A stretch of 64,000 bases of DNA from an uncultured archaeon (lineage in GTDB: Archaea; Asgardarchaeota; Lokiarchaeia; Sigyniarchaeales; SOKP01). The notes under the pieces are model-generated. The model was not told where the DNA came from. It ran no database searches and was given only the letters and a program-made list of their open reading frames with translations. Every line of letters starts with the position of its first letter. The first letter of the stretch is position 1. Shown one piece after another: positions 1 to 13,511 of this stretch. The position numbers were made by a program, and so were the translations under genes. The stretch covers positions 12,272 through 76,271 of the forward strand of contig CAZOYD010000009.1 of NCBI GenBank assembly GCA_964583985.1, written 5' to 3'.

Positions 1-2219
1 ATCCTTTCCAAGTTATCTCTCAGATTGTACAAGTCACCCGCCATGATATTATGCTTCTGAATGATACTATCGACGGGTTCTTCATCTGTCCATTCCAATA
101 GGGGGTTTAATAATCTATAATCCCTCACTCTTCGTTCAGCACGAAGAATGTCATAGGCTTCCTTTATCATTTCTTGATAAGAGGCTATTTCTAAATTCTC
201 CAATTTAGATCGAATTAGAACCCCTGATACAGGATACAAATATAGTCGTATGATCAACTTTCCAAATTGTGAACATTTTATGGTCCCATTCTCGTTTTTA
301 ATTATTAAACCTTTTTCAAACAAGTAATTTAGTATGTATTGGGTCTTTAAACATTGAGGAATAACATCCTCCACGTGTTTCTGGAAGTTTGGGTCGGGAA
401 TTTCAAACAGATATAGCAAGAAGGCTACGACATGATCGCAAAATTCAAAAGAAAACTTGGTAGTTGCGTATCCATCCGACATTCCATTCTCAAACCCACA
501 AGAACATTCAATACCCCTATCAAGATCAAATTGGATGTTATAGACCCCATAATCTGTTTTCAAGTATCCACCAATTCCCTCCTTGGTAAACCGAGATATT
601 TTAATGGGATACGATCGCTTCTTAATGGTATTTATTTTTTCAGGATGAGAATGTAATCTCAAAATGTTTTTTGGTGATATTTCTTCGATCAGGAGTAGCT
701 GCTCTATAGGAATAGCATCATCTCCCATTTTATCTTGTATACAAAACCAAAAAAATGTTTTTTTAAAGAAACTCTTTAATTGGTCCATTGAAATGTTTTC
801 TTCCTCGTAAACTCTTAATAGAACTTGTTCCTTCAGCGTGTGAACGGTATTTAACCCGGAACCTAAATCATTATATTTGGGAACAATTTCCTTGGTTGAA
901 TCTCCGGGGAAAAAATAATGATCTTCCACAAAATCTCTCTCATTTACATCACTTACGAGGATGATTCCATGTCCTATTGAATCCAAGCCTGGTCTACCAG
1001 CTCTTCCCAACATTTGAAATACCTCATTTGGGGAAAATGGTTTAAAATAGGAAAATCCATCTCCATTTTCATGAAGATCTTCGAAATTCTTGATGTTATG
1101 CCCCGATGTGGTATATCTCTTGAAATCTCTTAAAATGACCATTCTTGCCGGAAGGTTAATACCAGCAGATAATGTGGTGGTGGTAATTATAACTTTAAGC
1201 ACGTGCTTTCTAAATGATTCTTCGACAACTTTACGTTCCCTTGGAAGTAAACCTGCATGATGAAATGCAATACCATGCTTTATTGACTTTCTCAAGTCAG
1301 GAACACCTCCTCTAAGTGATGACAAGTTACCTTCCGCTTCTTTACATCCATTCAGTTCATCGGGACTCAGGTGTCCTTTTACCAACATTCTTAGATTATT
1401 AGCAATGCTCTGGGTGAGCTTTCGCTTATTAACAAACACTAACACCTGACCATTCTGAGATAAAGTATCATTTACGACTTTTTTCAAGGTGGAATCCTTG
1501 TTACGAGTGATTTCAATCTGATAGTGAAGCGGTACGGGTCTCACATCCGACTTGATTAAAACTGTCTCATTTCCAAGCGATGAAAGCCATTGATTGAAAA
1601 ATTCTGGGTTTGCAATGGTTGCAGAAAGCCCGATGATTTGAGGTTGGTGCAAGAATTCATTGAGTCGCACGATGAGTGATTCCAAACGCGGACCCCTATC
1701 AGATTCGTCAATAACATGGATCTCATCTATCACGATAGTAGTGATCTCTGAAATCCATTGCTTGTCGTGAAAATTCCTTAGTATGGAATCCATTTTTTCG
1801 TAGGTCGTGATGATTAGATCAGCTTCCTCTAATACTTTTTCTTCGGGTTCTTGATCTCCTATGGAAAGTTCCACGCGTATGCCAAACCGTTCGTAATCAT
1901 GCTTGAATGAAAGATATTTTTCGGAAGCTAATGCTTTGAAGGGTACTAAATATGCTGATTTACCAAAATTATTGAAAAGGGCGTGAACCGCGCATAACTC
2001 GCCAATGAGAGTCTTGCCACTCCCGCTTGGTGCACAAACTAAGAAGGATTTTCGGAAAAATAACCCTTTCGCGATCGCTTCTTTTTGAATTGTTCTTAAA
2101 CTAAAAATTTGGTGTTCTAAGAGCACCCGTTGAAGTCGTTCATCATTTATGTATTGAAGCACTTCTGGAGGTCCATCTATTGTGGGGATTTGTGATCTGA
2201 CATACTTTTTTAACGACAC
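1..2219 (-). CDS. Hel308/Ski2-like SF2 DExH helicase with inserted SWIM Zn finger (3' end beyond window)
   Basis: Not in ORF track; translated by hand in segments from a probable GTG at 2219, no in-frame stop seen before the edge. Walker A APSGSGKT (2010-2033), DEIH (1716-1727), GLSAT, TTTLSAGINLPAR, QMLGRAGRPG; CxC-x19-CxH at 432-506. Confidence 0.9.
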   Translation of the reverse strand, partial: MSLKKYVRSQIPTIDGPPEVLQYINDERLQRVLLEHQIFSLRTIQKEAIAKGLFFRKSFLVCAPSGSGKTLIGELCAVHALFNNFGKSAYLVPFKALASEKYLSFKHDYERFGIRVELSIGDQEPEEKVLEEADLIITTYEKMDSILRNFHDKQWISEITTIVIDEIHVIDESDRGPRLESLIVRLNEFLHQPQIIGLSATIANPEFFNQWLSSLGNETVLIKSDVRPVPLHYQIEITRNKDSTLKKVVNDTLSQNGQVLVFVNKRKLTQSIANNLRMLVKGHLSPDELNGCKEAEGNLSSLRGGVPDLRKSIKHGIAFHHAGLLPRERKVVEESFRKHVLKVIITTTTLSAGINLPARMVILRDFKRYTTSGHNIKNFEDLHENGDGFSYFKPFSPNEVFQMLGRAGRPGLDSIGHGIILVSDVNERDFVEDHYFFPGDSTKEIVPKYNDLGSGLNTVHTLKEQVLLRVYEEENISMDQLKSFFKKTFFWFCIQDKMGDDAIPIEQLLLIEEISPKNILRLHSHPEKINTIKKRSYPIKISRFTKEGIGGYLKTDYGVYNIQFDLDRGIECSCGFENGMSDGYATTKFSFEFCDHVVAFLLYLFEIPDPNFQKHVEDVIPQCLKTQYILNYLFEKGLIIKNENGTIKCSQFGKLIIRLYLYPVSGVLIRSKLENLEIASYQEMIKEAYDILRAERRVRDYRLLNPLLEWTDEEPVDSIIQKHNIMAGDLYNLRDNLER

Positions 2220-2344
2220 GTATGAGCTAACCTTATCCTTTTTTATAAAGAAAAATTTTCAGGAAAAATCATGCAAGTTGCTTTTTCTCTTTTTTTCAGT
2301 TTTTTTTTTTATAAATAAGAACATTCTAATTATACTTGAATATC

Positions 2345-4453
2345 ATGGTTAGCGTAAATGGAACACTTCAAGTAGAAAAAAAATGGGATTTGGTATTTTT
2401 ATATGAAAATCTGCAAGAAATTCTCGATGAAAATGATATCGAGCAAGCAATGTATTTTGCTAAGAATGCATTAAGGGAAGCGCAAACTCAAGAAAATGCG
2501 GAGTGGACTGCAAAATTTCAAGAAATAATAAACCAGCTCATTCAAACCAGAAATTTATATGAAGCTCCATCTCAAGAATCTACAAGTAACAATCAAGTGA
2601 TTCAATCAAAAAGAGATGATCTCACAAAAATAAAAGGAATCGGACCAAGTATCGCCCTAAAATTACAATCTAATGGATTTAATACCATTAAAGATATCAT
2701 AACTTCTACACCAGAACAAATTGCTAGCATTCCGGGAATTGGAGTTGCTACCGCAAGTAAGATGATCACGAATGCAAACGCATGGGTTAATGAAAGTGAC
2801 GAACAATCTATCCCTAAAAGTAAAAATCTCGCCGCCGTAACCCCAAAAGCTCTCACATCCTATAAAATGTTAAAATCCCAAGCTCAAGATAATAAGCCAA
2901 TTAGTAAAAATCTAAATGAATGGTTCGATTCCTTGCAAGATCAAAAAGCAATTGAAACCGAGAAAGTTTCTGATTCTCTTAATGAAGAACGTGTAAATTT
3001 CAGCTCTGCCACAAAAGAAATAGATACAGATGAAAATATAAGTAAAATTGATGAGGAGAAAGTGGCAAAAGAAGAACTTGAGGAAGAAAATCTTAGTACT
3101 AGTGAAGAATATGAGGTAAAACCATTGCAAAACAAAATATGTGTGCCTTATTTCACGAGGAGAGTCGATGCTGAAATTGAACCATTATCAAAGCCAGTTC
3201 AAATACCAGAAATAGAATTAAGTGAGAAAATCGTACCAATAAAAACGCCAATAATTGACAAAAATCGGCATTGTCAAACAATTGCACGAATTATAAAAGA
3301 TCGACAATTGCACGAGTTTTCTTTAAATGATCAAGAAATGCGGGAATTTCAACGTGGGATCGACAATTTTGCATGTAAAGTTATTACGGTTTCCTATAAC
3401 AGGCGTTTAATATTGCTCATGCCGATAAAATTCCTAAACTCTCAAAATCCCCTCTTCATATCTGAAATGAGGGTTTTGAAACCAATTAGTGCAAATAACT
3501 CTACATCATTACAATATGTCCCAGATTCCGTAGCAGAAGCCCATGCAAGGCAACTCAAGAAGGTTTCTGATGCCATGTTTGATAATTTTACGGATGAGGG
3601 AGCTCTGTACGCATTATTATCGAGATATTTTGGATTGGATACCATTGTACAAAAAGGTTTCAAACAAAAACCTCTTTTCATGGCATCTGGAGAAATCGAG
3701 TATGAGATCGTCATCGATCCAATACTTGTGACAAATCATTCCGTTTCATCCATTGAAAAAACGGTCTCATTTCCTTATCAACATTCATCAAATTTACACG
3801 TAATTGAATTGGAGGAATTAAGTGAGTTAATGGAATTCTTGGAACAAAAACATAATCTAATAACAACTCAAGATTCGGCTTCAAATTCCCTCGTGAAACA
3901 AGTTAAGATGAAAAACGTGTTCTATAAAAACCTTAAGAATTATTCGTTACCTTTCTTGTTTTTTGGCGCAATTTTTTCCCTTTTCTTAGTAATACAAATG
4001 AGAGATTTAATACGATTGCTTATATCTCTTGGATTTGCATTGATTTTTATATATGGAGGTGCCATCGCGCTAGTTTTATATCAATATTTCCAAGGAACAA
4101 ACAATATGGCAATTAATTTTAAGATGCCTTATTATGAGAAGCCGATTGAGCTTCGCAAGGAGGATCTGATCTTAATCAGGGAGGAATTTTCTGATGATTG
4201 GATGATTCAGCTTGAGCATGAAGTAAAAGAGACAGCATATAATTCAAAGAAAAACAGATTCACGTCTTTCCAAACCAAGAAATCGGGGATTGAGCCTCAA
4301 AACGATAATAATTCGATTAGAGGTGACCAATTAGGCCTCGAGCAATTCGAAGCTGAAACCTTGGTCAAGAAAACTGAATTCGAACGAAATCAAGATTTAA
4401 ATTCATTGAATGATCCTATTCTATCCAAGTATCAGTCATTTTTAGATGACTAA
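2345..4453 (+). CDS. Membrane-anchored helix-hairpin-helix protein with putative PD-(D/E)XK-like domain
   Basis: Tandem HhH (DDLTKIKGIGP...IPGIGVATA), acidic linker, globular domain, two C-terminal TM helices; ATG 2345 preferred over TTG 2336. Confidence 0.75.
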   Translation: MVSVNGTLQVEKKWDLVFLYENLQEILDENDIEQAMYFAKNALREAQTQENAEWTAKFQEIINQLIQTRNLYEAPSQESTSNNQVIQSKRDDLTKIKGIGPSIALKLQSNGFNTIKDIITSTPEQIASIPGIGVATASKMITNANAWVNESDEQSIPKSKNLAAVTPKALTSYKMLKSQAQDNKPISKNLNEWFDSLQDQKAIETEKVSDSLNEERVNFSSATKEIDTDENISKIDEEKVAKEELEEENLSTSEEYEVKPLQNKICVPYFTRRVDAEIEPLSKPVQIPEIELSEKIVPIKTPIIDKNRHCQTIARIIKDRQLHEFSLNDQEMREFQRGIDNFACKVITVSYNRRLILLMPIKFLNSQNPLFISEMRVLKPISANNSTSLQYVPDSVAEAHARQLKKVSDAMFDNFTDEGALYALLSRYFGLDTIVQKGFKQKPLFMASGEIEYEIVIDPILVTNHSVSSIEKTVSFPYQHSSNLHVIELEELSELMEFLEQKHNLITTQDSASNSLVKQVKMKNVFYKNLKNYSLPFLFFGAIFSLFLVIQMRDLIRLLISLGFALIFIYGGAIALVLYQYFQGTNNMAINFKMPYYEKPIELRKEDLILIREEFSDDWMIQLEHEVKETAYNSKKNRFTSFQTKKSGIEPQNDNNSIRGDQLGLEQFEAETLVKKTEFERNQDLNSLNDPILSKYQSFLDD

Positions 4454-4582
4454 TCGTTCCTTTTTTAGACAAATACTTCACATATTATGACTATTTGAAG
4501 ATATAAATTATAAATATGAATCTCAAAATGATCATCGCGCTTTTTTTTTGTTTTTTATATACTTTTATTTGTTTTTTATGAT

Positions 4583-5350
4583 ATGAATATTCATGATAAA
4601 TCAGCTGACGTTCTTAAGCTGTGTTTTATCGTTGGACTATTATTCACGTTTGTATCGTTGTTTTTAGAATGGTACATCGTGGATGTTTTCAATGAATCGG
4701 GACAAAAACTAGTAGAAAACACTCATGCGATCCTGAATGGATGGGTAACCATCAAGTATCTTGAAAATAGCGTGTTAAATCAATATATTCCTAAAAATAC
4801 CATGATGTCGCCCATGTTGACTCTCATTCAGGTCTTCATGATAGTAGGATCGATTATAATCGCTTTATTTAAAAACCCAGAAACTGCATCGAACTTGGAG
4901 ACAACAAAATCAAATGCCTATTTCTTCCTCACAACAAGTTTTATGATCACTCTCATGATTACGACCTTTCCTTTCACGATTCTCTTTCCCAATGATCTTT
5001 TTTTTCCAGGAATGGTTCTAAATAATATGGGACTTTCCATCATTATCAATGAAGAGATTGGGATTGGTTATATTTTGCAATGCATGGGTTTCATCTTGAC
5101 TTTTCCATATGCATTTTTTTGTTATAAAGTTGCCACCACGTTCCAACAACAATCAAAAGTTCCTAATAAGCGCGTTCAAATGCAACGAGTTAAGAAATCT
5201 GTTAATTTGGATCAACTAATAGCAGAAGAAGACGCTTTTTTAACTGCCAAAGAAAGCATAAAAGGACAAGAAGGGGTCGAGCACCAAGTTGAGATTGCCT
5301 ATCAGCAATTTCAATCGCAAAGAAAAAATGGTAAGAGGGTAAAAAATTAA
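4583..5350 (+). CDS. Uncharacterised 4-TM membrane protein
   Basis: Four hydrophobic segments, charged C-terminal tail; stop overlaps next start (TAATG). Confidence 0.75.
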   Translation: MNIHDKSADVLKLCFIVGLLFTFVSLFLEWYIVDVFNESGQKLVENTHAILNGWVTIKYLENSVLNQYIPKNTMMSPMLTLIQVFMIVGSIIIALFKNPETASNLETTKSNAYFFLTTSFMITLMITTFPFTILFPNDLFFPGMVLNNMGLSIIINEEIGIGYILQCMGFILTFPYAFFCYKVATTFQQQSKVPNKRVQMQRVKKSVNLDQLIAEEDAFLTAKESIKGQEGVEHQVEIAYQQFQSQRKNGKRVKN

Positions 5351-6210
5351 TGTTGATGGATTCAATAGACCATAAATTTGAGACGTTAGTAGAGAAATGC
5401 ATAATGACTGGAAATCACGCCAAACTTTCTGCTACCACATTACACCTAATTAGCAACCAAGCAGATGTGATGGGTATTAAATTAGGAATTGGTAGCCGAA
5501 ATCCAAGAGAGGATGAATTTATCCATCATTTTTTGGAACGAATTAATCGCTATATCGTTCACTTAGGAATCGAACTCATTCCTGATGATATTATCATGAG
5601 AATAAAAATGGTCGAAGCGCTCTTTTCCAAATCAAGAGGAAACTTGCCAAAAACCTACTTAAAAGATGCTATCGCTCTTTATTATGACATTCAAAAGATA
5701 AAGATACCGGAAATTGATGGTTTTACTCGCATCCTAAGAACACAAGGCAATTCTGATACTAAGTCATTTAACATGTTTTCAAGAAGACCTCAAAATGCTT
5801 CTTCTTCAATGGTTCGCGATCTCTTAATGGATGAAATTGAGAAAAGAGAGAGAGAGTTCCAGAACCAATTAAAAAATTCAAAAGAAATAAATGAAGAAGT
5901 TTTAGAAGCTTCATTGCAATTAAAGAATATTAAGTCTATACTCAATCTCAAGGATTATCGTAAGATACCCATTCAAGGAAGATTGAAAGATAACCCGGAA
6001 TACCTCGCTTCCAAAAGAGGAAGTGGATGGTTAGTGATATTAGGGTTTATCATCTTGTTGGGAATATTTGAGGCAACAATGATCGCAGAAACAATTATCT
6101 TGCCGAGTTCGTTAGAAGCGGTTGGAGGACTCTTGATCTTCTTAATGATGAGCATCCTATTGATAGGATATCTCTATTATAACGCTATAAAAAGAGAGAG
6201 GAGGTATTAA
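5350..6210 (+). CDS. Uncharacterised helical/coiled-coil protein with two C-terminal TM helices
   Basis: Soluble helical N-terminus, coiled-coil, two hydrophobic helices; translationally coupled. Confidence 0.75.
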   Translation: MLMDSIDHKFETLVEKCIMTGNHAKLSATTLHLISNQADVMGIKLGIGSRNPREDEFIHHFLERINRYIVHLGIELIPDDIIMRIKMVEALFSKSRGNLPKTYLKDAIALYYDIQKIKIPEIDGFTRILRTQGNSDTKSFNMFSRRPQNASSSMVRDLLMDEIEKREREFQNQLKNSKEINEEVLEASLQLKNIKSILNLKDYRKIPIQGRLKDNPEYLASKRGSGWLVILGFIILLGIFEATMIAETIILPSSLEAVGGLLIFLMMSILLIGYLYYNAIKRERRY

Positions 6211-6213
6211 ACA

Positions 6214-9200
6214 ATGGTTAATTATGCAGAATATCTAAAACCAAAAATAATCCAAGTAGAAGAAAAGGAAGAGAAGCAGTATCTCAACATCTGGCGCCAA
6301 GGTCCTATACGAAAAGACGTGAATAAAAGCGTAATTTGGGTAAAATGGGGTGTTTTATTAGGAATCATTTCTGTCATTGGAGTCCACGGGTTTTTGTTAT
6401 CATTTGATCTCTTGAAAATCATCTCTCTATGTGCGTTCCTCATCATGCTCTTCATCGCGATCTTTTCCAACCTATTATCTTTTAGAGTTTCTTATAATCC
6501 TTTTGAATCCTTATCTTTTTGGCAATTGAAAGGGGACTCAAATTCCATTTTTTTTACCAATCGAGAAGATTTGCTGACGGTGGGGACGAGAATTTTTCGG
6601 GTCGAGGTACTACCTGAAAATGTTAGTGCCAATTTCACGCAATTTATCAGAGTGCTCTCAACTCGCTATCAAACCATTACTTACCAAGTGATTCAACAAC
6701 CTATCATATCTCCTTTAACTCAATCATCCCCAACGAAGAAAGAAATAAATGGAGCTAGGATGACTTCATTTCGAACCATTATCTATTTTGCATTATCTCA
6801 CGAGATTATAGGTAATTTTTCTACTAATAAATTTAATCGATTCTTAGAAACCTTGCATTCTAAAACGTTGGCAATTAAATCTGATTTTGTCGCAAATTTC
6901 CATCACTATAAGATAACACTATTGGAAAAAAATGAAGCATTACAAGCCTTGAGGACCATTTTCCTCAAGCAAGAGGTTCCTCCAAGTGATCAGACCAAGC
7001 ATGATGTAAAATTAACATTAAAAGCTATTTCCAAAGCAATCATGATCCTAATCATCTCAATTCTTGTTGGTGGGTTAGTTTCTGCCGTTTGGAAGAACTG
7101 GGTTCTTACAATCATATCATTCATCGTTGTAATAATGACTATAATCATTGGTTGGTGGAAAGAACCCTTATTCCAGCTTTTTTCAAAAAATAAATTTACC
7201 TCTCCAGAAATCATTCCTATTAATCCCTTTGAAGATATACAATTCTTTATTTTTTCACGGGTGCCTGAAACGATTTTTTTTCAAGTAGGAGACGAGTTAT
7301 TGGGAGGAATAAAAGCATTTAGCGTGAATGAGGTTAAATTACCCATATTTGCACATGATAGTAAGTTTTTCGGTTCGCTCATGGCTCAAGGAATATCCTT
7401 TGGAACCACGATAGTTGCAGGAGCAATTTCTTATTATAAATTTTATAAAATAGGAAACAAGTCCTTGAATCGATCAGAAAAAAAAAAACATATGAGCAAG
7501 ATAAGAGATAGGCAGGAAGAAGATAAGTGGATGATCCAAAGAGCCGGCATGTGGAAAATGATAGGAATGTATACTACTCAGGCATATAAGCGCGTGAAAA
7601 ACGTTTCCACCGCTGATTTCCAAGACCTTGAATCTCAGCTCCGGGAAAATGCGATGATCCTGAAAACCTCATTTCATTCCTATTACTCTACTTTTAATAT
7701 TAAACCTCTCAAAAAAGATCACTTGGAATCCGCACTTTCCCTGAGTTCACTCAAAACCAGGTTTATTCAGTCAAAAGGTTCATATTTGCCTTTCATGTTG
7801 ATTCAAGGTACCACATTAACTCATTTCATCACCATTGCCAATGAATTCAAGAAAGGAATTGAAACCAGAATTGCGGCTGAATTTAATACCCCACTACAAT
7901 TAGAAAGTCAAGTAAATATTGGAACAACTATCAATACAGAGTTTTTGGAGGGAGAAATCGACGCGGGATTTACAAGAGATCAGGTCAAACGTTTATTAAT
8001 AACCAATGGTACATCTCAAAGCAGGGAAATGGTGACAATGCTAATGGTCGCAGAGCTCATCAAGCAAGGTCAGCATTCCATAATTTTTGATTATTCGGGA
8101 AATTGGTCAAAACTTATCAGATTCTTTGATGGAATGCCCAAACAAAAGTCAATAATTTACTATAAATTGGGTCGAACGATGACAATCGATCCAATCCATT
8201 CTGAACTTCCATTCGATGCCCATAATCTTAAATTTTTGAACTTAATGCTAGATGTCTATGGCATGAGCTTTAAAAAAGATGAGAGAACTGTTGATCTTTT
8301 TAAAAATTCACTTTCAAACCTCCCCTCAAAGTTAAAAGATGAAGATTCGAGTGCGGATTATTCCACGCTCGTAACGCACGTAAAAAATTTACCCGACCAC
8401 GAAAAGAGAGATGGAGTTGAATCCATAATTGCCACTCTCAAAGAATTCTCGGCTGAAGATACTACATACCTTTATACTAAAAATTTTCGAGAAACTAAGT
8501 TCATCTCATCGATCTACGAATTCTTAACAAATAATAAAACGGTAATCATCGATATATCAGGTTCATCAGATTTGAACAAACAAGTCTTTTTTACTTGGTT
8601 GATCATAGCAAAATTCATCCATTATCTCAAATACAACGATACACATGTCCCCAAATTTTTAGTAATTCCAAATCTAGACCTCATATTTGATGTTTATTTC
8701 CTGGAAAAACCAATGAAATACGGCAAAATTTCTAAGTTAATGACCCCCTTATTGCAAAAAGGTTTTGGATTCATCTGCTCTGTCGATCAAATACACCATG
8801 TCCATCCACAAGTACTTACAATTCTTGAGAATTATATAGCATTTAAGTCAATTGATCCTCGAGATATTTCCACGCTTCGAAACCTACTCAATCTTGAAGA
8901 AATGCATGGAACGGGCATGTATAGTAAATCGCGAAATGAGTTATATCAAGCGAGATATTTAATGACCATGCGCCCTCTTGAAGCCATAATGAAGCGTACT
9001 GATATTTACCAGCCATTTCCAATAAAAATTGATTCATTAAAATTTACGGAATTAAAAGCACTCGATTGGGAAGAAATTATCATTCACATGGAAGCCCAAG
9101 GATTTAACATGAAAAAGAGCGAAAGAATAATATTAGAACGGGCACAAAAGACGGTGTTTGAAAAAGATATGGGGGATCATTCTCATCTGATTCCAGAAAT

Positions 9201-10005
9201 CATCACGTTCTTGGAAAGTTTGAGAACCGTTCATGCCATAGGGAATTTATATAAGAGCAAGATTCGTGAAGAACTCAAGAAGGTGATATATCCCAAACTT
9301 TCATTGATAAATCAGAATAAAAATGTAGTGAATAAAATTAGGGATGAAATCTTAAATATTCTTTTTAGTAGAGGATATTTAGTGGAAACTCATCCCCCAC
9401 AAGCAAGTGGGGGTCAATCCGTTCGTTCAAGTTATCAAGTCTCCCCAAAGTTTGATAGAGTCTTAGAGGATTATTATGAAACGCGAAGGAAAACACTAGC
9501 TGACATCGATTTGGAAATCATTGACAAGCAATCCGACACCATTCCTGATTTTAAATTCGGTCCATCCCAAGAATCCCTGCTAAAAAGGTTAGCCATAGAC
9601 AAAGTTAAACCCATCATTCGCTCCGAATTAATTGATATTTTACAATGGAACTTGTTTCAAATAACGAGGGATTTGAACAAGGGAAATCTGGATCGTGCGT
9701 TAACCATTGCCCAAGATCTCTCCGAGATGTATATTTCTAATGTTCAAGCACGAATAGAGCAACTCCCAGAGATTGGAGTGTTTAAATCAAGAGAACTTTT
9801 CCTAAAAAGCTTAGTAGCACTGGATGGTTTTCCTTTAACTCAAGAAGAAATAGAAAATTATTTAGCATATCCATCAACCCTGACAATTTCTGATGAAAAA
9901 ACACTGAAAAAGGAAGCGTGTGATGCATTAGTGAAATCCCACCAAAGAATATCTCATTTATTAGAAGAATATACTTACATGCAACAAGGAGGAGAAGACT
10001 TATGA
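6214..10005 (+). CDS. Membrane-bound VirB4/HerA-like P-loop protein with degenerate Walker A/B (pseudo-ATPase)
   Basis: Two (2TM + alpha/beta) repeats, then LLITNGTSQSRE (Walker A position), IIFDYSGNW, VIIDISG, FLVIPNLD (Walker B position), GFGFICSVDQ; SD GAGGAGG upstream. Confidence 0.65.
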   Translation: MVNYAEYLKPKIIQVEEKEEKQYLNIWRQGPIRKDVNKSVIWVKWGVLLGIISVIGVHGFLLSFDLLKIISLCAFLIMLFIAIFSNLLSFRVSYNPFESLSFWQLKGDSNSIFFTNREDLLTVGTRIFRVEVLPENVSANFTQFIRVLSTRYQTITYQVIQQPIISPLTQSSPTKKEINGARMTSFRTIIYFALSHEIIGNFSTNKFNRFLETLHSKTLAIKSDFVANFHHYKITLLEKNEALQALRTIFLKQEVPPSDQTKHDVKLTLKAISKAIMILIISILVGGLVSAVWKNWVLTIISFIVVIMTIIIGWWKEPLFQLFSKNKFTSPEIIPINPFEDIQFFIFSRVPETIFFQVGDELLGGIKAFSVNEVKLPIFAHDSKFFGSLMAQGISFGTTIVAGAISYYKFYKIGNKSLNRSEKKKHMSKIRDRQEEDKWMIQRAGMWKMIGMYTTQAYKRVKNVSTADFQDLESQLRENAMILKTSFHSYYSTFNIKPLKKDHLESALSLSSLKTRFIQSKGSYLPFMLIQGTTLTHFITIANEFKKGIETRIAAEFNTPLQLESQVNIGTTINTEFLEGEIDAGFTRDQVKRLLITNGTSQSREMVTMLMVAELIKQGQHSIIFDYSGNWSKLIRFFDGMPKQKSIIYYKLGRTMTIDPIHSELPFDAHNLKFLNLMLDVYGMSFKKDERTVDLFKNSLSNLPSKLKDEDSSADYSTLVTHVKNLPDHEKRDGVESIIATLKEFSAEDTTYLYTKNFRETKFISSIYEFLTNNKTVIIDISGSSDLNKQVFFTWLIIAKFIHYLKYNDTHVPKFLVIPNLDLIFDVYFLEKPMKYGKISKLMTPLLQKGFGFICSVDQIHHVHPQVLTILENYIAFKSIDPRDISTLRNLLNLEEMHGTGMYSKSRNELYQARYLMTMRPLEAIMKRTDIYQPFPIKIDSLKFTELKALDWEEIIIHMEAQGFNMKKSERIILERAQKTVFEKDMGDHSHLIPEIITFLESLRTVHAIGNLYKSKIREELKKVIYPKLSLINQNKNVVNKIRDEILNILFSRGYLVETHPPQASGGQSVRSSYQVSPKFDRVLEDYYETRRKTLADIDLEIIDKQSDTIPDFKFGPSQESLLKRLAIDKVKPIIRSELIDILQWNLFQITRDLNKGNLDRALTIAQDLSEMYISNVQARIEQLPEIGVFKSRELFLKSLVALDGFPLTQEEIENYLAYPSTLTISDEKTLKKEACDALVKSHQRISHLLEEYTYMQQGGEDL

Positions 10006-10928
10006 CCGCTGATGTGACTGATGTGAATTCATTAGACATTCTAAAGGGGCTAGTAGAAAAAGTGATATTTGATCAGGATAATCTCAACTCACTCAAGACG
10101 AAAATTAAGCAACTTTCTCGAGATGAAATTACCCAAAAAGAGATGAAGCAACTCATATTAAACCAGCGTGCCATAATGTTAGACGATATTCTCGAATTGT
10201 TTCCTTTCTATATTAATAAGTTGCAAGAAAATGAACAGTCAAGGACAAAATCAAGCAATAGCAATTCAATATCAGAATTAGAAGAAAAACTCGGGGAACG
10301 AGAAGAATTATTAGAGTTGCTTGCAAGAAGAATTCAAGGATTAGTACAAGGAAACCCTGCTATTGAAAAAACAGAAGCAAGTGATCTTAATGATAATGAG
10401 ATGCTTTATTCTATTGACAATGTGATTATCAAGGAATTACAAGTGATCAATATTGATTCATGGCTAAAGATGGTTGATTATATTAACTTGGAGAAAAAAT
10501 GTGTTAAGGATGACTTTCGACTCTTGGTCAGATTAATCGGAAATATCGCGTTATATCATGAGAGAATGCTTGAAAAAGATGAGGAATTACCAATTCCAAA
10601 AAAGATCAAAGAACTCAATTTTCCCATCGAATTGGAAAAAGATTTGATCCTCTTGAATAAGGCAAGAAATAATGCCGTTCATGATGGAAAAGAAATCTAT
10701 GACGATGATCGACTTCTCATGTATGATGTTTTTTTTAGAGTTCTTCAATTTTTATTAGAATATCACGTGAAAGAAAAAGTAAATGGATTAGTTTCCGAAA
10801 ATAGCGATAAAACGACAATATATAAAGAAACCAGGGAAATACTCGCTAATTACATTGCAAAAAAGGTATCGAAGACCAGTTGGGAACATCCTCAATTACA
10901 TAATCTCATCAAAGAAGTGTTTTCTTAA
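10002..10928 (+). CDS. Coiled-coil + HEPN-domain protein (putative RNase)
   Basis: RNNAVH (RxxxxH) at 10665-10682 in all-helical context; ATGA overlap and GGAGGAG SD. Confidence 0.65.
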   Translation: MTADVTDVNSLDILKGLVEKVIFDQDNLNSLKTKIKQLSRDEITQKEMKQLILNQRAIMLDDILELFPFYINKLQENEQSRTKSSNSNSISELEEKLGEREELLELLARRIQGLVQGNPAIEKTEASDLNDNEMLYSIDNVIIKELQVINIDSWLKMVDYINLEKKCVKDDFRLLVRLIGNIALYHERMLEKDEELPIPKKIKELNFPIELEKDLILLNKARNNAVHDGKEIYDDDRLLMYDVFFRVLQFLLEYHVKEKVNGLVSENSDKTTIYKETREILANYIAKKVSKTSWEHPQLHNLIKEVFS

Positions 10929-11028
10929 TCTAATTTTTTTGTAAAAAAACAATCCATATCACTTTAAACTAACGCTTGAATATTATATCTTAAATTACTC
11001 ACCAAAAAGGATAAATTAGGAGTTTAAG

Positions 11029-11190
11029 ATGAAAGAACATTATTTTTACATTTCAATGTGTTTCATTATTATTGGTATTTTTTATACTTTTATGATGTTT
11101 AACGGTGGTGTAATCGCTGGTATTAGTTACATAGTTGCTGGAATTCTCATGATAATTTATTTAATACTGCCTGATAGAGAAAAAGAGTGA
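11029..11190 (+). CDS. Small 53-aa two-TM membrane protein (not in ORF track)
   Basis: AGGAG SD at 11018-11022; MKEHYFYISMCFIIIGIFYTFMMFNGGVIAGISYIVAGILMIIYLILPDREKE*. Confidence 0.65.
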   Translation: MKEHYFYISMCFIIIGIFYTFMMFNGGVIAGISYIVAGILMIIYLILPDREKE

Positions 11191-11255
11191 AATTTTTAGT
11201 CAAAATTAAAAAAATATATATGATTCCATTGAGAAAAACCTAGTCAATGTAGGAT

Positions 11256-11280
11256 AATTCCGTCAAGGAATTTTTTATTT
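11256..11280 (+). terminator. Hairpin + T-tract between convergent genes
   Basis: AATTCC-gtcaa-GGAATT followed by T-rich run. Confidence 0.45.
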
Positions 11281-11285
11281 ATTTT

Positions 11286-12131
11286 TTATTCCATCTCGAA
11301 ATGAAATGGAATCATTCGCAAGTAATCGAACCCAACAACGTTAGGTGCTAAATTCATTGGTTTTACTCCAAGAAGACCCGCAAAAATAATTTCGGCACAT
11401 AAATATGATGCTGAAATACCGATAAAGGGAGCAAATGACCGATATGGAACCTCACCCCGCTTCATTTTTTCCCACATTCCAGGATAACGATCGTAAATCT
11501 CGCCGATTCGAGGAAATTGGGTCAGTTTGGGAAATAAATCCCCGAAACTCGTCATTCCTGATGTGAACAGTTCCTCAATAGTCATATCATGAGTATCAAG
11601 ATCATAGCAGGTTTCATAGTCAATGCTGCTCTGAGTGAACCAAAACGACCAAATGTATGGAATTCCCCACGTTTCTACCATCGGAATGTTCCTTTTTCTG
11701 CATTCGCGTGCGATTAATATTGATCCGATTGGATCATCCAATGTGAGAGCAACAATTTTCACATCATTAAGTAAACTGTCTATGGTGTCAAGATTAACTG
11801 CATTGAACTTTCTAACTTGAACCTTGGGATTTATCTTCTCTAGGTGTTCAGCTACCACATCAATTTTTAAATCACCCATGTGCTTATTCATGCATATTTG
11901 ACGGTTTAAATTCGAGGGTTCGAATACATCCCTATCACAAATAACCAAATGCTCACAACCAACGCGCACTAACTGTTCTGAAAGCAACCCACCTAATCCA
12001 CCGACGCCAAACACTCCAATAGGGGTTGTTCGAAGGATTTCTTGTTCTATCGGACTGACGTGACCGATGTTGCGGCTGACTTGGTGCGAATATTCATGAG
12101 ACCATTTCGACTCTAATTCTAATTCTAACAT
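11286..12131 (-). CDS. ThiF/MoeB/E1-like adenylyltransferase lacking Zn-binding CxxC pairs
   Basis: GVGGLGG, DRDVFEPSNLNRQ, K(I)D motifs; likely start ATG 12131 rather than 12212. Confidence 0.85.
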   Translation of the reverse strand: MLELELESKWSHEYSHQVSRNIGHVSPIEQEILRTTPIGVFGVGGLGGLLSEQLVRVGCEHLVICDRDVFEPSNLNRQICMNKHMGDLKIDVVAEHLEKINPKVQVRKFNAVNLDTIDSLLNDVKIVALTLDDPIGSILIARECRKRNIPMVETWGIPYIWSFWFTQSSIDYETCYDLDTHDMTIEELFTSGMTSFGDLFPKLTQFPRIGEIYDRYPGMWEKMKRGEVPYRSFAPFIGISASYLCAEIIFAGLLGVKPMNLAPNVVGFDYLRMIPFHFEME

Positions 12132-12278
12132 TCTAATTCTAATTTTAACATTCTTTGTATATAAAGAACAAAATGAAAAAACGATTCGAGAGATTATTGC
12201 CAATTTTGTCATTTTTCCTTTAAATAAAAAGGTTTTACTGGGTAGCTATTACTGTCTAATAACTATAAATGAAGACTC

Positions 12279-13511
12279 ATGATTACTCAAGAAATATTAA
12301 CCTGTCCAATCATTCCACGCAAAGTTTTATACCCAAAATCGATTGAAGCATTTCTCGATGCATTTGAAGGGATTCTTGATTTGGATATCGAAAATGGCAT
12401 GGAACTCGATTTTTTGATCGAAGGACGGGAAGGTTCCACCAAGATTAGTCCCGTGTTAAAACTTGCTCGTCCGGAAGATGCCAAGGATTTAGCAGATATA
12501 TGTAAAAAAGTATACGATAATTCATATCCATACCATGAAATGGAAGATGAAAAAGTAATTAAGAAGTTAATTAAGGATCCTCGTCATCATTTTATCTTGT
12601 TTAAGGTTGGAGACTATTCTGCAGGGTGTTTTCGCTGTGCTATCGATTTTGAGGAAAAAAAAGGATATATGGGTGGATTCATGCTGCGTAAACAGTTTCA
12701 TGGAGTTGTAGATGTCATAAAAGTTATCATGGGCTCATATTATTGGATGTGGTCAACATTCAAGGATGATGTAGTAATGTGGCATTGCGAGAATCGAACA
12801 GCACACGCAGCACTCCAGCACATGACTGCGCTATGTGGTATTGATACGGTTGCCATATTTCCAAACAAGGACATATTTTTTGGATTAGTGGAGAGTGATG
12901 TAATGGGTTTAATTTTTAATGAAGACACTCTAAAAAATTGTCGAACAAAGAAAGTACCTGCTTTAATCGAAAATGCCTTAGAGCCATACTTATTTGCTGA
13001 TAACTTGTACCAACTAGGATTTTTTCAATTGGTTTCTCCTCATTTAAAATTAGATCAGGAACAAATTGAATACTTAAGATCCAAAATTAATAGGAAAGTA
13101 TCGAAAGATAAACACGGTTATGAACATTTCTGTTTAACTTTTCAAGGAAGTAAATCATATTTCTCTTTTTTACACACACCCTCAGTAAAAAATTATGAAA
13201 AAGTGGAGTATCACGTGGATTCAGTAGAAGAGTTTCATGTGTTTATTGAAGAAGTGAAGATTTGCATGGCAGAACAAGATATACGATACTGCGAGATTTT
13301 TACCTCTGCTCATGAACCTGAATATCAACAAATTCTCTTTGAATTTGGTTTCCGGGCACGAGGATACGTTCCTTGCTGGGAACATGATACAAAAAAACAA
13401 TCATATGATGATAGCGTGGTGTTTAGTTACCATAAAGGAGAGATTAAGCACATTGAACTTTTAGCTCAGGGAAAAGAATTATTTTCCATGGTTGGTTTGA
13501 AAGTTGCCTAA
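12279..13511 (+). CDS. Tandem-GNAT-fold acyltransferase
   Basis: LARPEDA start of GNAT, MLRKQFHG acyl-CoA-site-like segment, C-terminal FGFRARGYVP. Confidence 0.65.
   Translation: MITQEILTCPIIPRKVLYPKSIEAFLDAFEGILDLDIENGMELDFLIEGREGSTKISPVLKLARPEDAKDLADICKKVYDNSYPYHEMEDEKVIKKLIKDPRHHFILFKVGDYSAGCFRCAIDFEEKKGYMGGFMLRKQFHGVVDVIKVIMGSYYWMWSTFKDDVVMWHCENRTAHAALQHMTALCGIDTVAIFPNKDIFFGLVESDVMGLIFNEDTLKNCRTKKVPALIENALEPYLFADNLYQLGFFQLVSPHLKLDQEQIEYLRSKINRKVSKDKHGYEHFCLTFQGSKSYFSFLHTPSVKNYEKVEYHVDSVEEFHVFIEEVKICMAEQDIRYCEIFTSAHEPEYQQILFEFGFRARGYVPCWEHDTKKQSYDDSVVFSYHKGEIKHIELLAQGKELFSMVGLKVA

Follow-up and report, generated by a model that had tools for sequence, protein, structure and literature searches.

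The window, by which we mean the whole stretch analysed, covers 64,000 nucleotides (nt) of contig CAZOYD010000009.1 (assembly GCA_964583985.1) from an uncultured Lokiarchaeia archaeon, and our subject is a cluster of five co-oriented genes near its left end, which may encode a membrane-bound sensor of nucleic acids, together with the helicase gene that lies divergently beside it. In the open reading frame (ORF) list, the plus strand carries a gene for a protein with a helix-hairpin-helix (HhH) domain and a transmembrane (TM) hairpin (2345..4453), followed by genes for a 4TM protein (4583..5350), a 2TM protein (5350..6210), a 1263-residue core protein that we call the big protein (6214..10005), and a last product comprising a small putative adaptor and a domain with an Rx4H motif (10002..10928); the minus strand carries a Hel308-type superfamily 2 (SF2) helicase gene (3..2219) that continues beyond the window start. 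Because the HhH gene starts at ATG 2345, an invariant Met position in the orthologue alignment (the ORF call gives 2336 as alternative), the divergent spacer between it and the helicase gene measures 125 bp (2220..2344) by sequence reading and orthologue alignment. Within this spacer are two A/T-rich TATA-like boxes, about 25 nt upstream of each start codon, and it presumably acts as a promoter region. The last four genes are tightly coupled, with a TAATG overlap at 5348-5352 joining the stop of the 4TM gene to the start of the 2TM gene, a TAA-aca-ATG junction in which gagaggagg precedes ATG 6214, and an ATGA overlap at 10002 between the big gene and the last gene. In this genome 129 bp, including a T10 tract, lie between the HhH and 4TM genes, where most relatives have a few bases, and a T7 tract lies downstream of the last gene. 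Hydropathy gives two TM segments in the HhH protein, four in the 4TM protein, two in the 2TM protein, four in the big protein and none in the last product, and GC content is even over the region (0.31-0.39). An initial annotation, made from the letters alone, had described the co-orientation and coupling of these genes, a shared divergent region of about 125 bp and TM helices in four of the five products, all of which we recovered. Only two of the six products, the helicase (Hel308) and the first plus-strand product (HhH2), have family matches, the other four of the five plus-strand products having no match in Pfam, NCBIfam or PADLOC; in line with the expectation that no full defence system would be called, PADLOC returned nothing for the six products except generic HamB/BrxH helicase matches.

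Judged by its predicted structure, the big protein has a HerA/VirB4-clade fold of the FtsK/HerA superfamily from which the catalytic Walker residues have been lost, much as the initial annotation had supposed when it spoke of a VirB4/HerA-like scaffold with dead motifs. An AF2 model of residues 520-1263 (pLDDT 77.5) matched HerA 4d2i in Foldseek with E 3e-10 and probability 1.0, so that a FtsK/HerA-fold match for the 6214 product was indeed found. The VIA Z scores of this model were 25.7 for DndH-C (7es4), 25.3 for VirB4 (4ag5) and 24.6 for HerA (4d2i), the top matches aligning about 330 residues at a root mean square deviation of about 4.2, followed by TrwB (22.5), the SIR2-HerA and DUF4297-HerA chains (about 20-22), R388 TrwK (18.8) and FtsK (14). 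Because the top three scores are tied, the fold cannot choose among HerA, VirB4 and DndH. Within the predicted pseudo-ATPase domain (nt 7867-9147; AF2, Foldseek and VIA), the Walker A slot between strand beta1 and helix alpha1, placed by alignment and AF2 secondary structure, reads NGTSQSRE (residues 598-605; 8005..8028), with Arg where the Lys, and Glu where the Ser/Thr, would stand. N598, G599 and R604 are invariant or nearly so, the family consensus being NGxxxxRE and remote relatives reading GGTxEQRF or worse; GK[ST] occurs in none of the 30 relatives aligned with hmmalign, the most remote included. The Walker B segment VIIDIS (residues 777-782; 8542..8559) keeps D780 and S782 invariant with I or L between them, and a catalytic Glu is found in none of the 30 relatives. 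Further along, the alignment shows an invariant R907..Q912 motif (SRNxxYQ; nt 8932-8949), of which R907 is a candidate arginine finger, and the AF2 model places a winged helix at nt 9253-9489, followed by a helical C-terminal domain. In one remote relative the C-terminus matches HTH_34 and PadR, and homologue P0075 has a weak Pfam DUF87 match. The N-terminal 520 residues comprise a tandem duplication of a TM hairpin plus an alpha/beta part of about 170 residues (hhalign 99.1%, E 7e-19), the two modules lying at nt 6301-6999 and nt 6997-7773. The big protein is single copy in its own genome. Profile searches of PDB sequences with the big protein, its N-terminal module, the C-terminal half of the HhH protein, the 2TM protein and the last product gave nothing significant.

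A word-based search for the big protein yielded 129 relatives of full length, every one of them from an Asgard metagenome, and an exhaustive hidden Markov model (HMM) search of 1.84 billion protein cluster representatives yielded only 260. From species-representative genomes we took 80 big-protein loci, in 53 of which (class-1) the order HhH-TM, 4TM, 2TM, big and small gene is kept; the genes thus co-occur elsewhere, in the same order, far more often than chance would give. The 4TM gene was seen in 51/51 class-1 loci, the HhH gene in 43/44 of those with enough flank, the small protein in 44/49 and the divergent helicase in 33/35; the 2TM gene adjoins the big gene in 50 loci. Since four of its products fall in no family and we found no description of the cluster in the literature on Asgard HerA, VirB4, Hel308, SWIM, HEPN or defence, the suggestion that it is a conserved, undescribed unit has held up. 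A further 18 loci carry a paralogue of the big gene without the HhH, 4TM, 2TM or small gene (paralogue-type loci include L054, L061, L063, L068, L069, L086, L111, L004, L031, L035 and L048). These paralogues are often preceded by a TPR protein and often followed by a HerA-like ATPase of about 650 residues and a protein of 1400-1800 residues that belongs to no family; the ATPase has an intact Walker A (GLTGxGK[TS]) and PADLOC mad8/HerA matches.

The distribution is narrow. In a phylum survey of 300 genomes, scoring three candidates per genome, strong matches were obtained in 50 of the 67 genomes of the window's own GTDB family, weak ones in 2/7 of a sister family, a match in 1/21 of one other family, and none elsewhere. 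Distant homologues in the sister family do not lie beside HhH, 4TM, 2TM or helicase genes. The lone outlier, in the Hodarchaeum family, is a 12-kb contig in a metagenome-assembled genome (MAG) with 7% contamination, and may be mis-binned. The cluster is therefore confined to one family-level Asgard lineage, as the survey itself has it, and the idea of an Asgard-wide conserved system, which the NCBI labels (Thor-, Hod- and Hermodarchaeota) had invited, was discarded on the same survey. A MAG labelled Thorarchaeota by NCBI is placed in the window's own GTDB family; conflicts between NCBI label and genome-based placement were seen for L033 / G240 (Hodarchaeum mangrovi FT_5_011) and L057 / G287.

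The last gene was originally read as encoding a HEPN protein and as an integral part of the cluster. Its residues 1-115, a conserved helical N-terminal domain of about 115 residues (10002..10346; phmmer domain table), correspond in most loci to a free-standing protein of 106-135 residues encoded after the big gene. This small protein is thus the true fifth core component, and the C-terminal helical domain (residues ~145-308; 10434..10928), a putative HEPN-type RNase, is a lineage-specific accessory fusion. The latter harbors the Rx4H motif RNNAVH (residues 222-227; nt 10665-10682), whose R and H are kept in nine fused orthologues in the orthologue alignment. A HEPN assignment is plausible on the strength of this motif, but the family itself did not come through, the only hits being below threshold (Pfam DUF4145 at E 0.08; HepS 9oij at E 0.31 over the motif region in a profile search of PDB sequences), and Pfam called no HEPN family among the 18 members scanned. 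Instead of the Rx4H domain, the adaptor of L074 and L032 is fused to a Zc3h12a-type NYN RNase (PF11977, E 2e-13). Elsewhere the fusion is to the big protein itself, as in P0089 (directly to NYN) and P0075 (with an Rx4H-bearing extension); at the paralogue-type locus L111 the pseudo-ATPase is joined to a NYN RNase. Domains of RNase type thus recur at the C-terminal end of the assembly, with HEPN as one accessory form and not, as had been proposed, a core part. Seven loci (L025, L026, L027, L037, L043, L049 and L064) also encode a free-standing 284-residue protein with an N-terminal CxxC...CxxC zinc ribbon. Its gene keeps a conserved place behind cluster c19, some 7 kb downstream of our five genes, and a further domain of the protein is related by homology to the C-terminal half of our last product, with RxxxxQ standing where that product has Rx4H.

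The HhH protein comprises, in order, an HhH2 domain, an acidic disordered linker, an alpha/beta domain, a TM hairpin, a conserved juxtamembrane helix and a conserved tail. The HhH2 DNA-binding domain (residues 94-144; nt 2615-2767), already noticed in the initial annotation, matches HHH_5 in Pfam at E 4e-14 (53 bits against a cut-off of 27) and is kept in 17 of 19 aligned orthologues. A restriction-endonuclease-like fold had also been attributed to this protein, presumably to its alpha/beta domain (residues 312-511; nt 3269-3868, from alignment and AF2), and this attribution is unconfirmed. In the AF2 model of residues 312-705 (pLDDT 83.7, with the alpha/beta part above 90), no Foldseek row fell below E 1e-3 in PDB or BFVD; the best PDB row had E 0.15, the Shedu nuclease 8ti9 E 0.28 with probability 0.35, and Mrr-like and NERD rows in BFVD E 0.26-0.46, all sub-significant, and both VIA lists were filled by the TM helical hairpin (nt 3938-4090; hydropathy and alignments) rather than by the alpha/beta domain. 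Orthologue alignments of the ID..A.K ... P-I-K segment (3359..3433), in which the initial annotation had seen a degenerate PD-(D/E)xK motif, show D343 and K348 to be nearly invariant and P363 to be invariant where the acid of (D/E)xK is expected, the motif reading P-I-K. Because that acid is replaced by an invariant Pro, a PD-(D/E)xK fold, if present, is not an active nuclease. The C-terminal tail KY(S/Q)SFL(E/D)D (nt 4427-4450; orthologue alignment), conserved and acidic-aromatic, follows a disordered stretch of about 55 residues and looks like a docking peptide for a soluble partner.

As for the two smaller membrane proteins, the 4TM protein has two aromatic-rich loops, which probably face outward, and an acidic tail DLD..IAEE, which is probably cytoplasmic; the 2TM protein has a helical cytoplasmic domain of about 215 residues and a C-terminal TM hairpin. 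Neither has a Pfam or NCBIfam match, comparison of the 4TM and TM-hairpin proteins with VirB6, VirB3 and CedA gave no homology detectable by sequence families and no PDB profile hit, and the big protein likewise showed no homology to the HhH, 2TM and 4TM proteins when their profiles were compared.

The helicase next door was recognized in the initial annotation as Ski2/Hel308-like, which is correct insofar as its best NCBIfam families are Hel308 models (E 1e-108 to 1e-87). All of these matches are under the equivalog cut-offs (363 bits against 887 for the Hel308 equivalog), the motor and winged-helix domains alone align, and Pfam matches are to DEAD, Helicase_C and, weakly, ratchet domain 4 (E 3e-4). 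The window holds the N-terminal 739 residues, orthologues having about 840; immediately to the left of the window start, the gene's 3' end is read as N in the window's own assembly (about 35 codons, translated as X), and the C-terminal HLH domain was therefore seen in the orthologues, which carry it. It is the sole Hel308-like gene of the genome, and Hel308 orthologues are 53-63% identical within the family. Between the winged-helix and ratchet domains is inserted a SWIM-like zinc-finger motif, CxC-x19-CxH (minus strand, 432..506), whose residues C572, C574, C594 and H596 are invariant in 18 orthologues. The SWIM finger claimed earlier thus stands as a motif but not as a family call, since PF04434 (Pfam SWIM) is absent from the Pfam hits of the helicase at E <= 0.1; we found no paper mentioning a CxC-xn-CxH finger of Asgard Hel308. 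In the Hel308 loci compared (the window plus L109, L110 and L112-L116), the motif stands in the same place in five other Asgard families without the cluster, with a spacer of n = 11-28 over at least six GTDB families and 19 in the window's own. Because it occurs in families lacking the cluster, the finger is a general trait of Asgard Hel308 and no mark of the cluster, and co-evolution of the SWIM insert with the cluster, which we had considered, is ruled out.

The surroundings of the helicase point the same way. Across the family a block of about 25 kb keeps the order Hef-like helicase, DUF1922 zinc ribbon, small gene, Hel308, cluster, (ThiF), c5, c10 and c8; because the whole block is syntenic within the family, adjacency of the helicase to the cluster is no more telling than adjacency of ThiF. 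Clusters c9, c6 and c7, corresponding to the Hef-like helicase, the DUF1922/DUF5817 protein and a 96-residue gene product, keep their order across the family. Upstream of Hel308, and of the window, in locus L094 (7292-10374) the Hef-like SF2 helicase has 750 residues with Pfam helicase domains only and no nuclease hit, and is followed by a 175-residue DUF1922/DUF5817 zinc-ribbon protein and then by the 96-residue gene product. In about one class-1 locus out of three, Hel308 and the HhH gene are separated by a gene of about 100-125 residues on the helicase strand (cluster c11; L003 4635-4937 and some 17 other loci), which is absent from the window with its 125-bp spacer. The four-gene module stands with no helicase beside it in two genomes, L041 and L051. 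Next to Hel308 in the sister family lies a RadA or a NACHT gene; a 1264-residue gene product beside Hel308 in one such genome, at first a candidate relative of the big protein, is a NACHT protein unrelated to it. The search found helicase and big gene together in 41 family genomes and neither of them in 13; the 13 discordant cases that we checked proved to be contig ends or paralogues, and four near-complete genomes without the cluster show no Hel308 orthologue either. Linkage alone can account for this co-absence. A complex prediction for helicase residues 1-739 with the cytoplasmic tail of the HhH protein (residues 599-705) returned a score of 0.00, which is no answer and counts neither way.

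These comparisons indicate that the helicase is the ordinary Hel308 of the lineage and a neighbour of the cluster; it is the only copy in its genome, with neighbours that vary in the sister family and are syntenic inside the window's own, so that it comes close to being a sole housekeeping Hel308 in changing company. For the same reasons, namely its single copy, the general Asgard finger and the different neighbours in the sister family, the proposal that it replaces the dead ATPase as motor is not borne out. That Hel308 also works with the membrane complex strikes us as doubtful though worth keeping in mind, because linkage alone can explain the joint loss.

Downstream of the T-tract that follows the last gene, and before the ThiF gene, we noticed a small ORF (window 11030-11191, plus strand) of 53 residues with two hydrophobic segments and a GGAG-like box upstream, which falls under the 60-residue threshold of the ORF listing.

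The cluster also differs from its flanks in the pace at which it changes. Between genera, the median identity is 27% for the HhH protein, 29% for the 4TM protein, 29% for the 2TM protein and 34% for the big protein, compared with 51% for Hef, 42% for DUF1922, 51% for ThiF, 40% for c5, 45% for c8 and about 60% for Hel308, and the cluster (27-34%) thus evolves faster than its flanks (40-60%). Of the 67 family genomes, 13 yielded no cluster, among them several that are 95-99% complete and some that belong to the same genera as genomes that have it. In a 98% complete genome of the same genus (G200; L122, C17:122000-141900, ~7900-12800), the locus is degraded, with the big gene reduced to an N-terminal ORF of 154 residues and Hel308 to 211 residues, the HhH, 4TM and 2TM genes intact, and the c5 gene brought beside the helicase stump, a pattern that suggests an inversion with deletions at both breakpoints. 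The cluster is dispensable.

Among described systems, the nearest are the HerA-effector defence complexes (SIR2-HerA, also called Nezha, and DUF4297-HerA) and the DndH motor of DndFGH, which share the HerA-clade core fold (7es4 Z 25.7; HerA 24.6; effector chains ~20-22). The likeness extends to the coupling of a HerA-type subunit to a variable effector, and the paralogue loci add a true HerA-like ATPase. However, the cluster departs from these complexes in several ways: 1) neither the Walker A Lys nor the Walker B Glu is present in any relative; 2) the protein is membrane-embedded through four TM helices; 3) a duplicated N-terminal module appears to occupy the place where the HAS barrel sits; 4) the HhH, 4TM and 2TM partners belong to no known family; 5) where an effector is attached at all, which is a minority of loci, it is an RNase and not SIR2 or a nuclease. 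With VirB4 of type IV secretion systems (T4SS) and the archaeal Ced/Ted systems the big protein shares the fold of the C-terminal domain (4ag5 Z 25.3, TrwB Z 22.5), and the arrangement in one operon with small membrane proteins is also alike, but here the P-loop is inactive, the locus showed no recognizable gene for a coupling protein, relaxase or pilus, the soluble domains are probably cytoplasmic, and RNase fusions occur. Hachiman likewise pairs a Ski2/Hel308-like helicase with a possibly nuclease-like alpha/beta protein, and PADLOC HamB hits our helicase at E 1e-46; nevertheless, the helicase scores far better as Hel308 (E 1e-108) and is the only Hel308 of the genome, no neighbour has a DUF1837/HamA match (Pfam, PADLOC), the genes are divergent rather than co-transcribed, and the candidate catalytic acid is an invariant Pro. 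The archaeal Hel308 (Hjm) has the same order RecA1-RecA2-WH-ratchet-HLH, gives the best NCBIfam matches and occurs in one copy per genome, the helicase of the window's family being about 100 residues longer than the Hel308 of other Asgard families (~735 residues). By the features tested, the cluster is not a member of the T4SS/Ced, Hachiman or HerA-NurA systems.

From the gene order, conservation, folds, dead motifs, RNase fusions, fast evolution and dispensability described above, we tentatively propose that the cluster specifies a membrane-bound nucleic-acid sensor scaffold with an RNase output, a system of the conflict or abortive-infection type, to which we would give somewhat less than an even chance; it supposes that the products form a complex, sense DNA, cleave RNA and act against viruses. 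Genes 2345-10928 would constitute one operon, possibly with two transcripts in this genome, and their products would form a cytoplasm-facing complex embedded in the membrane. Because the catalytic Walker residues are lost in every known relative, the big protein, anchored by its two TM hairpins, would be a scaffold or switch rather than a motor. Its winged helix, along with the HhH2 domain, may bind DNA at the inner membrane face, and the 4TM protein may provide the only sizeable outward-facing loops. The small helical protein, translationally coupled to the core, would be an adaptor carrying an Rx4H (HEPN-like) domain here, an NYN RNase in others and nothing in most lineages. We surmise that such a complex would sense foreign or aberrant nucleic acid, or a disturbance of the envelope, at the membrane, whereupon the pseudo-ATPase assembly would change conformation and release the output, presumably RNA cleavage where an RNase is attached and perhaps perturbation of the membrane by the TM subunits elsewhere. 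A role in conflict or surveillance fits better than a transfer channel or core maintenance because a dead membrane scaffold is combined with DNA-binding modules at the cytoplasmic face, because RNase domains are interchangeable and the paralogues recruit an active HerA-like ATPase, TPR and giant partners, and because the cluster evolves fast, is narrowly distributed and can be dispensed with. An antiviral sensor-effector with HEPN as its toxic output was one of the two alternatives originally offered, and of this the RNase part has gained, given that Rx4H and NYN domains are found repeatedly on the big protein or its small partner, but HEPN is not core.

Several observations weigh against this proposal. 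No component matches a known defence family except for the generic HamB hits of the helicase, and the block of about 25 kb is syntenic across the family and uniform in composition, with no integrase or tRNA boundary seen; the locus is not a typical variable defence island. Most class-1 loci have no recognizable effector domain, the HEPN fold and the RNase activity are predictions, and the free-standing 284-residue homologues carry RxxxxQ. Fast evolution is also expected of weakly constrained membrane or scaffold proteins, and absence from MAGs may be an artefact of assembly.

The fixed place of the cluster could instead speak for a lineage-specific housekeeping complex of DNA maintenance, a reading that we consider unlikely, in which a structural pseudo-ATPase ring would serve as membrane tether or platform for chromosomal or damaged DNA, held via the HhH and winged-helix domains, and would work with Hel308 and Hef, e.g., in fork restart or recombination. 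Hef-DUF1922 and Hel308 lie on one side of the cluster throughout the family and ThiF/c5 on the other, the big gene is single copy in its own genome, and the cluster and Hel308 have a divergent promoter region in common. They are also present or missing together, the discordances that we checked being contig ends or paralogues, and G200 has both the helicase and the big gene truncated; however, linkage by itself would make genes 4 kb apart disappear together, and L041 and L051 retain the four-gene module with no helicase adjacent. Moreover, Rx4H and NYN fusions are unexpected for a DNA tether, the cluster proteins evolve much faster than the adjoining repair genes, and the block was not found in several near-complete genomes of the same genera. 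A related but in our view very unlikely variant shifts the substrate from DNA to RNA and sees a membrane-anchored processing platform, loosely degradosome-like, on which RNases (Rx4H, NYN) and a Ski2-family helicase would be gathered for RNA turnover. RNase domains do recur on the scaffold and the neighbouring helicase is in the Ski2-like/Hel308 group, but that helicase is a Hel308 orthologue, hence of a DNA helicase family, the recognizable nucleic-acid modules are of DNA type (HhH2, winged helix), most loci lack an RNase domain, and the system is dispensable and narrowly distributed.

The other alternative originally offered was a conduit for DNA import or export derived from a VirB4-type (T4SS or Ced/Ted-like) system, with the 4TM protein, the 2TM protein and the hairpins of the big protein as channel, the HhH protein holding the DNA and Hel308 as external motor. 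We regard it as quite improbable. The VirB4 C-terminal domain is certainly among the top folds (4ag5 Z 25.3; R388 TrwK Z 18.8), but HerA and DndH-C score equally well and the fold gives a T4SS no preference; small TM-hairpin and polytopic partners recall a VirB3/VirB6-style layout and the DNA-binding HhH protein is anchored in the membrane, and yet the large soluble domains, HhH included, are all probably cytoplasmic to judge from the topology. No family member has a working P-loop, and Pfam, NCBIfam and PADLOC scans recognized no coupling protein, relaxase, pilin or secretin-like gene at the locus, which leaves the T4SS/Ced reading without its active ATPase and its accessory parts. RNase fusions do not fit DNA transfer, and the link to the helicase is unsupported, given the family-wide synteny and the general Asgard finger.

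Returning to the sensor scaffold with RNase output, we also entertained two broader statements. One is that this HerA/VirB4-superfamily system makes up a machine class of its own, which seems to us rather doubtful, and we would be similarly guarded about the more specific claim that the big-protein family is a hitherto undescribed class of membrane-embedded immune or surveillance machines of Asgard archaea, with an ancient, catalytically dead HerA/VirB4-like ring as conformational switch, DNA read at the inner membrane face via HhH and winged helix in the class-1 operon, possibly a co-opted Hel308, interchangeable RNase outputs, and paralogues driven by an active HerA-like ATPase with TPR and giant partners.

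On the practical side, the NCBI class labels of several MAGs conflict with genome-based placement, and "SWIM-Hel308" is the Asgard form of Hel308; both are cautions for anyone surveying these genomes. No described family accommodates four of the five products, it is unusual for an entire protein family to consist of membrane-anchored pseudo-ATPases with a HerA/VirB4 fold, and the operon is a well-defined target for structural work and, when genetic tools become available, for genetics in cultured Asgards of Lokiarchaeia type. Cooperation with Hel308 and Hef, if that is what the complex does, would make it the first partner of these repair helicases to be bound to the membrane. If the sensor-effector reading is true, the cluster would represent a new architecture of archaeal immunity in the lineage closest to eukaryotes, one in which a dead translocase ring is reused as a signalling scaffold with swappable RNases.

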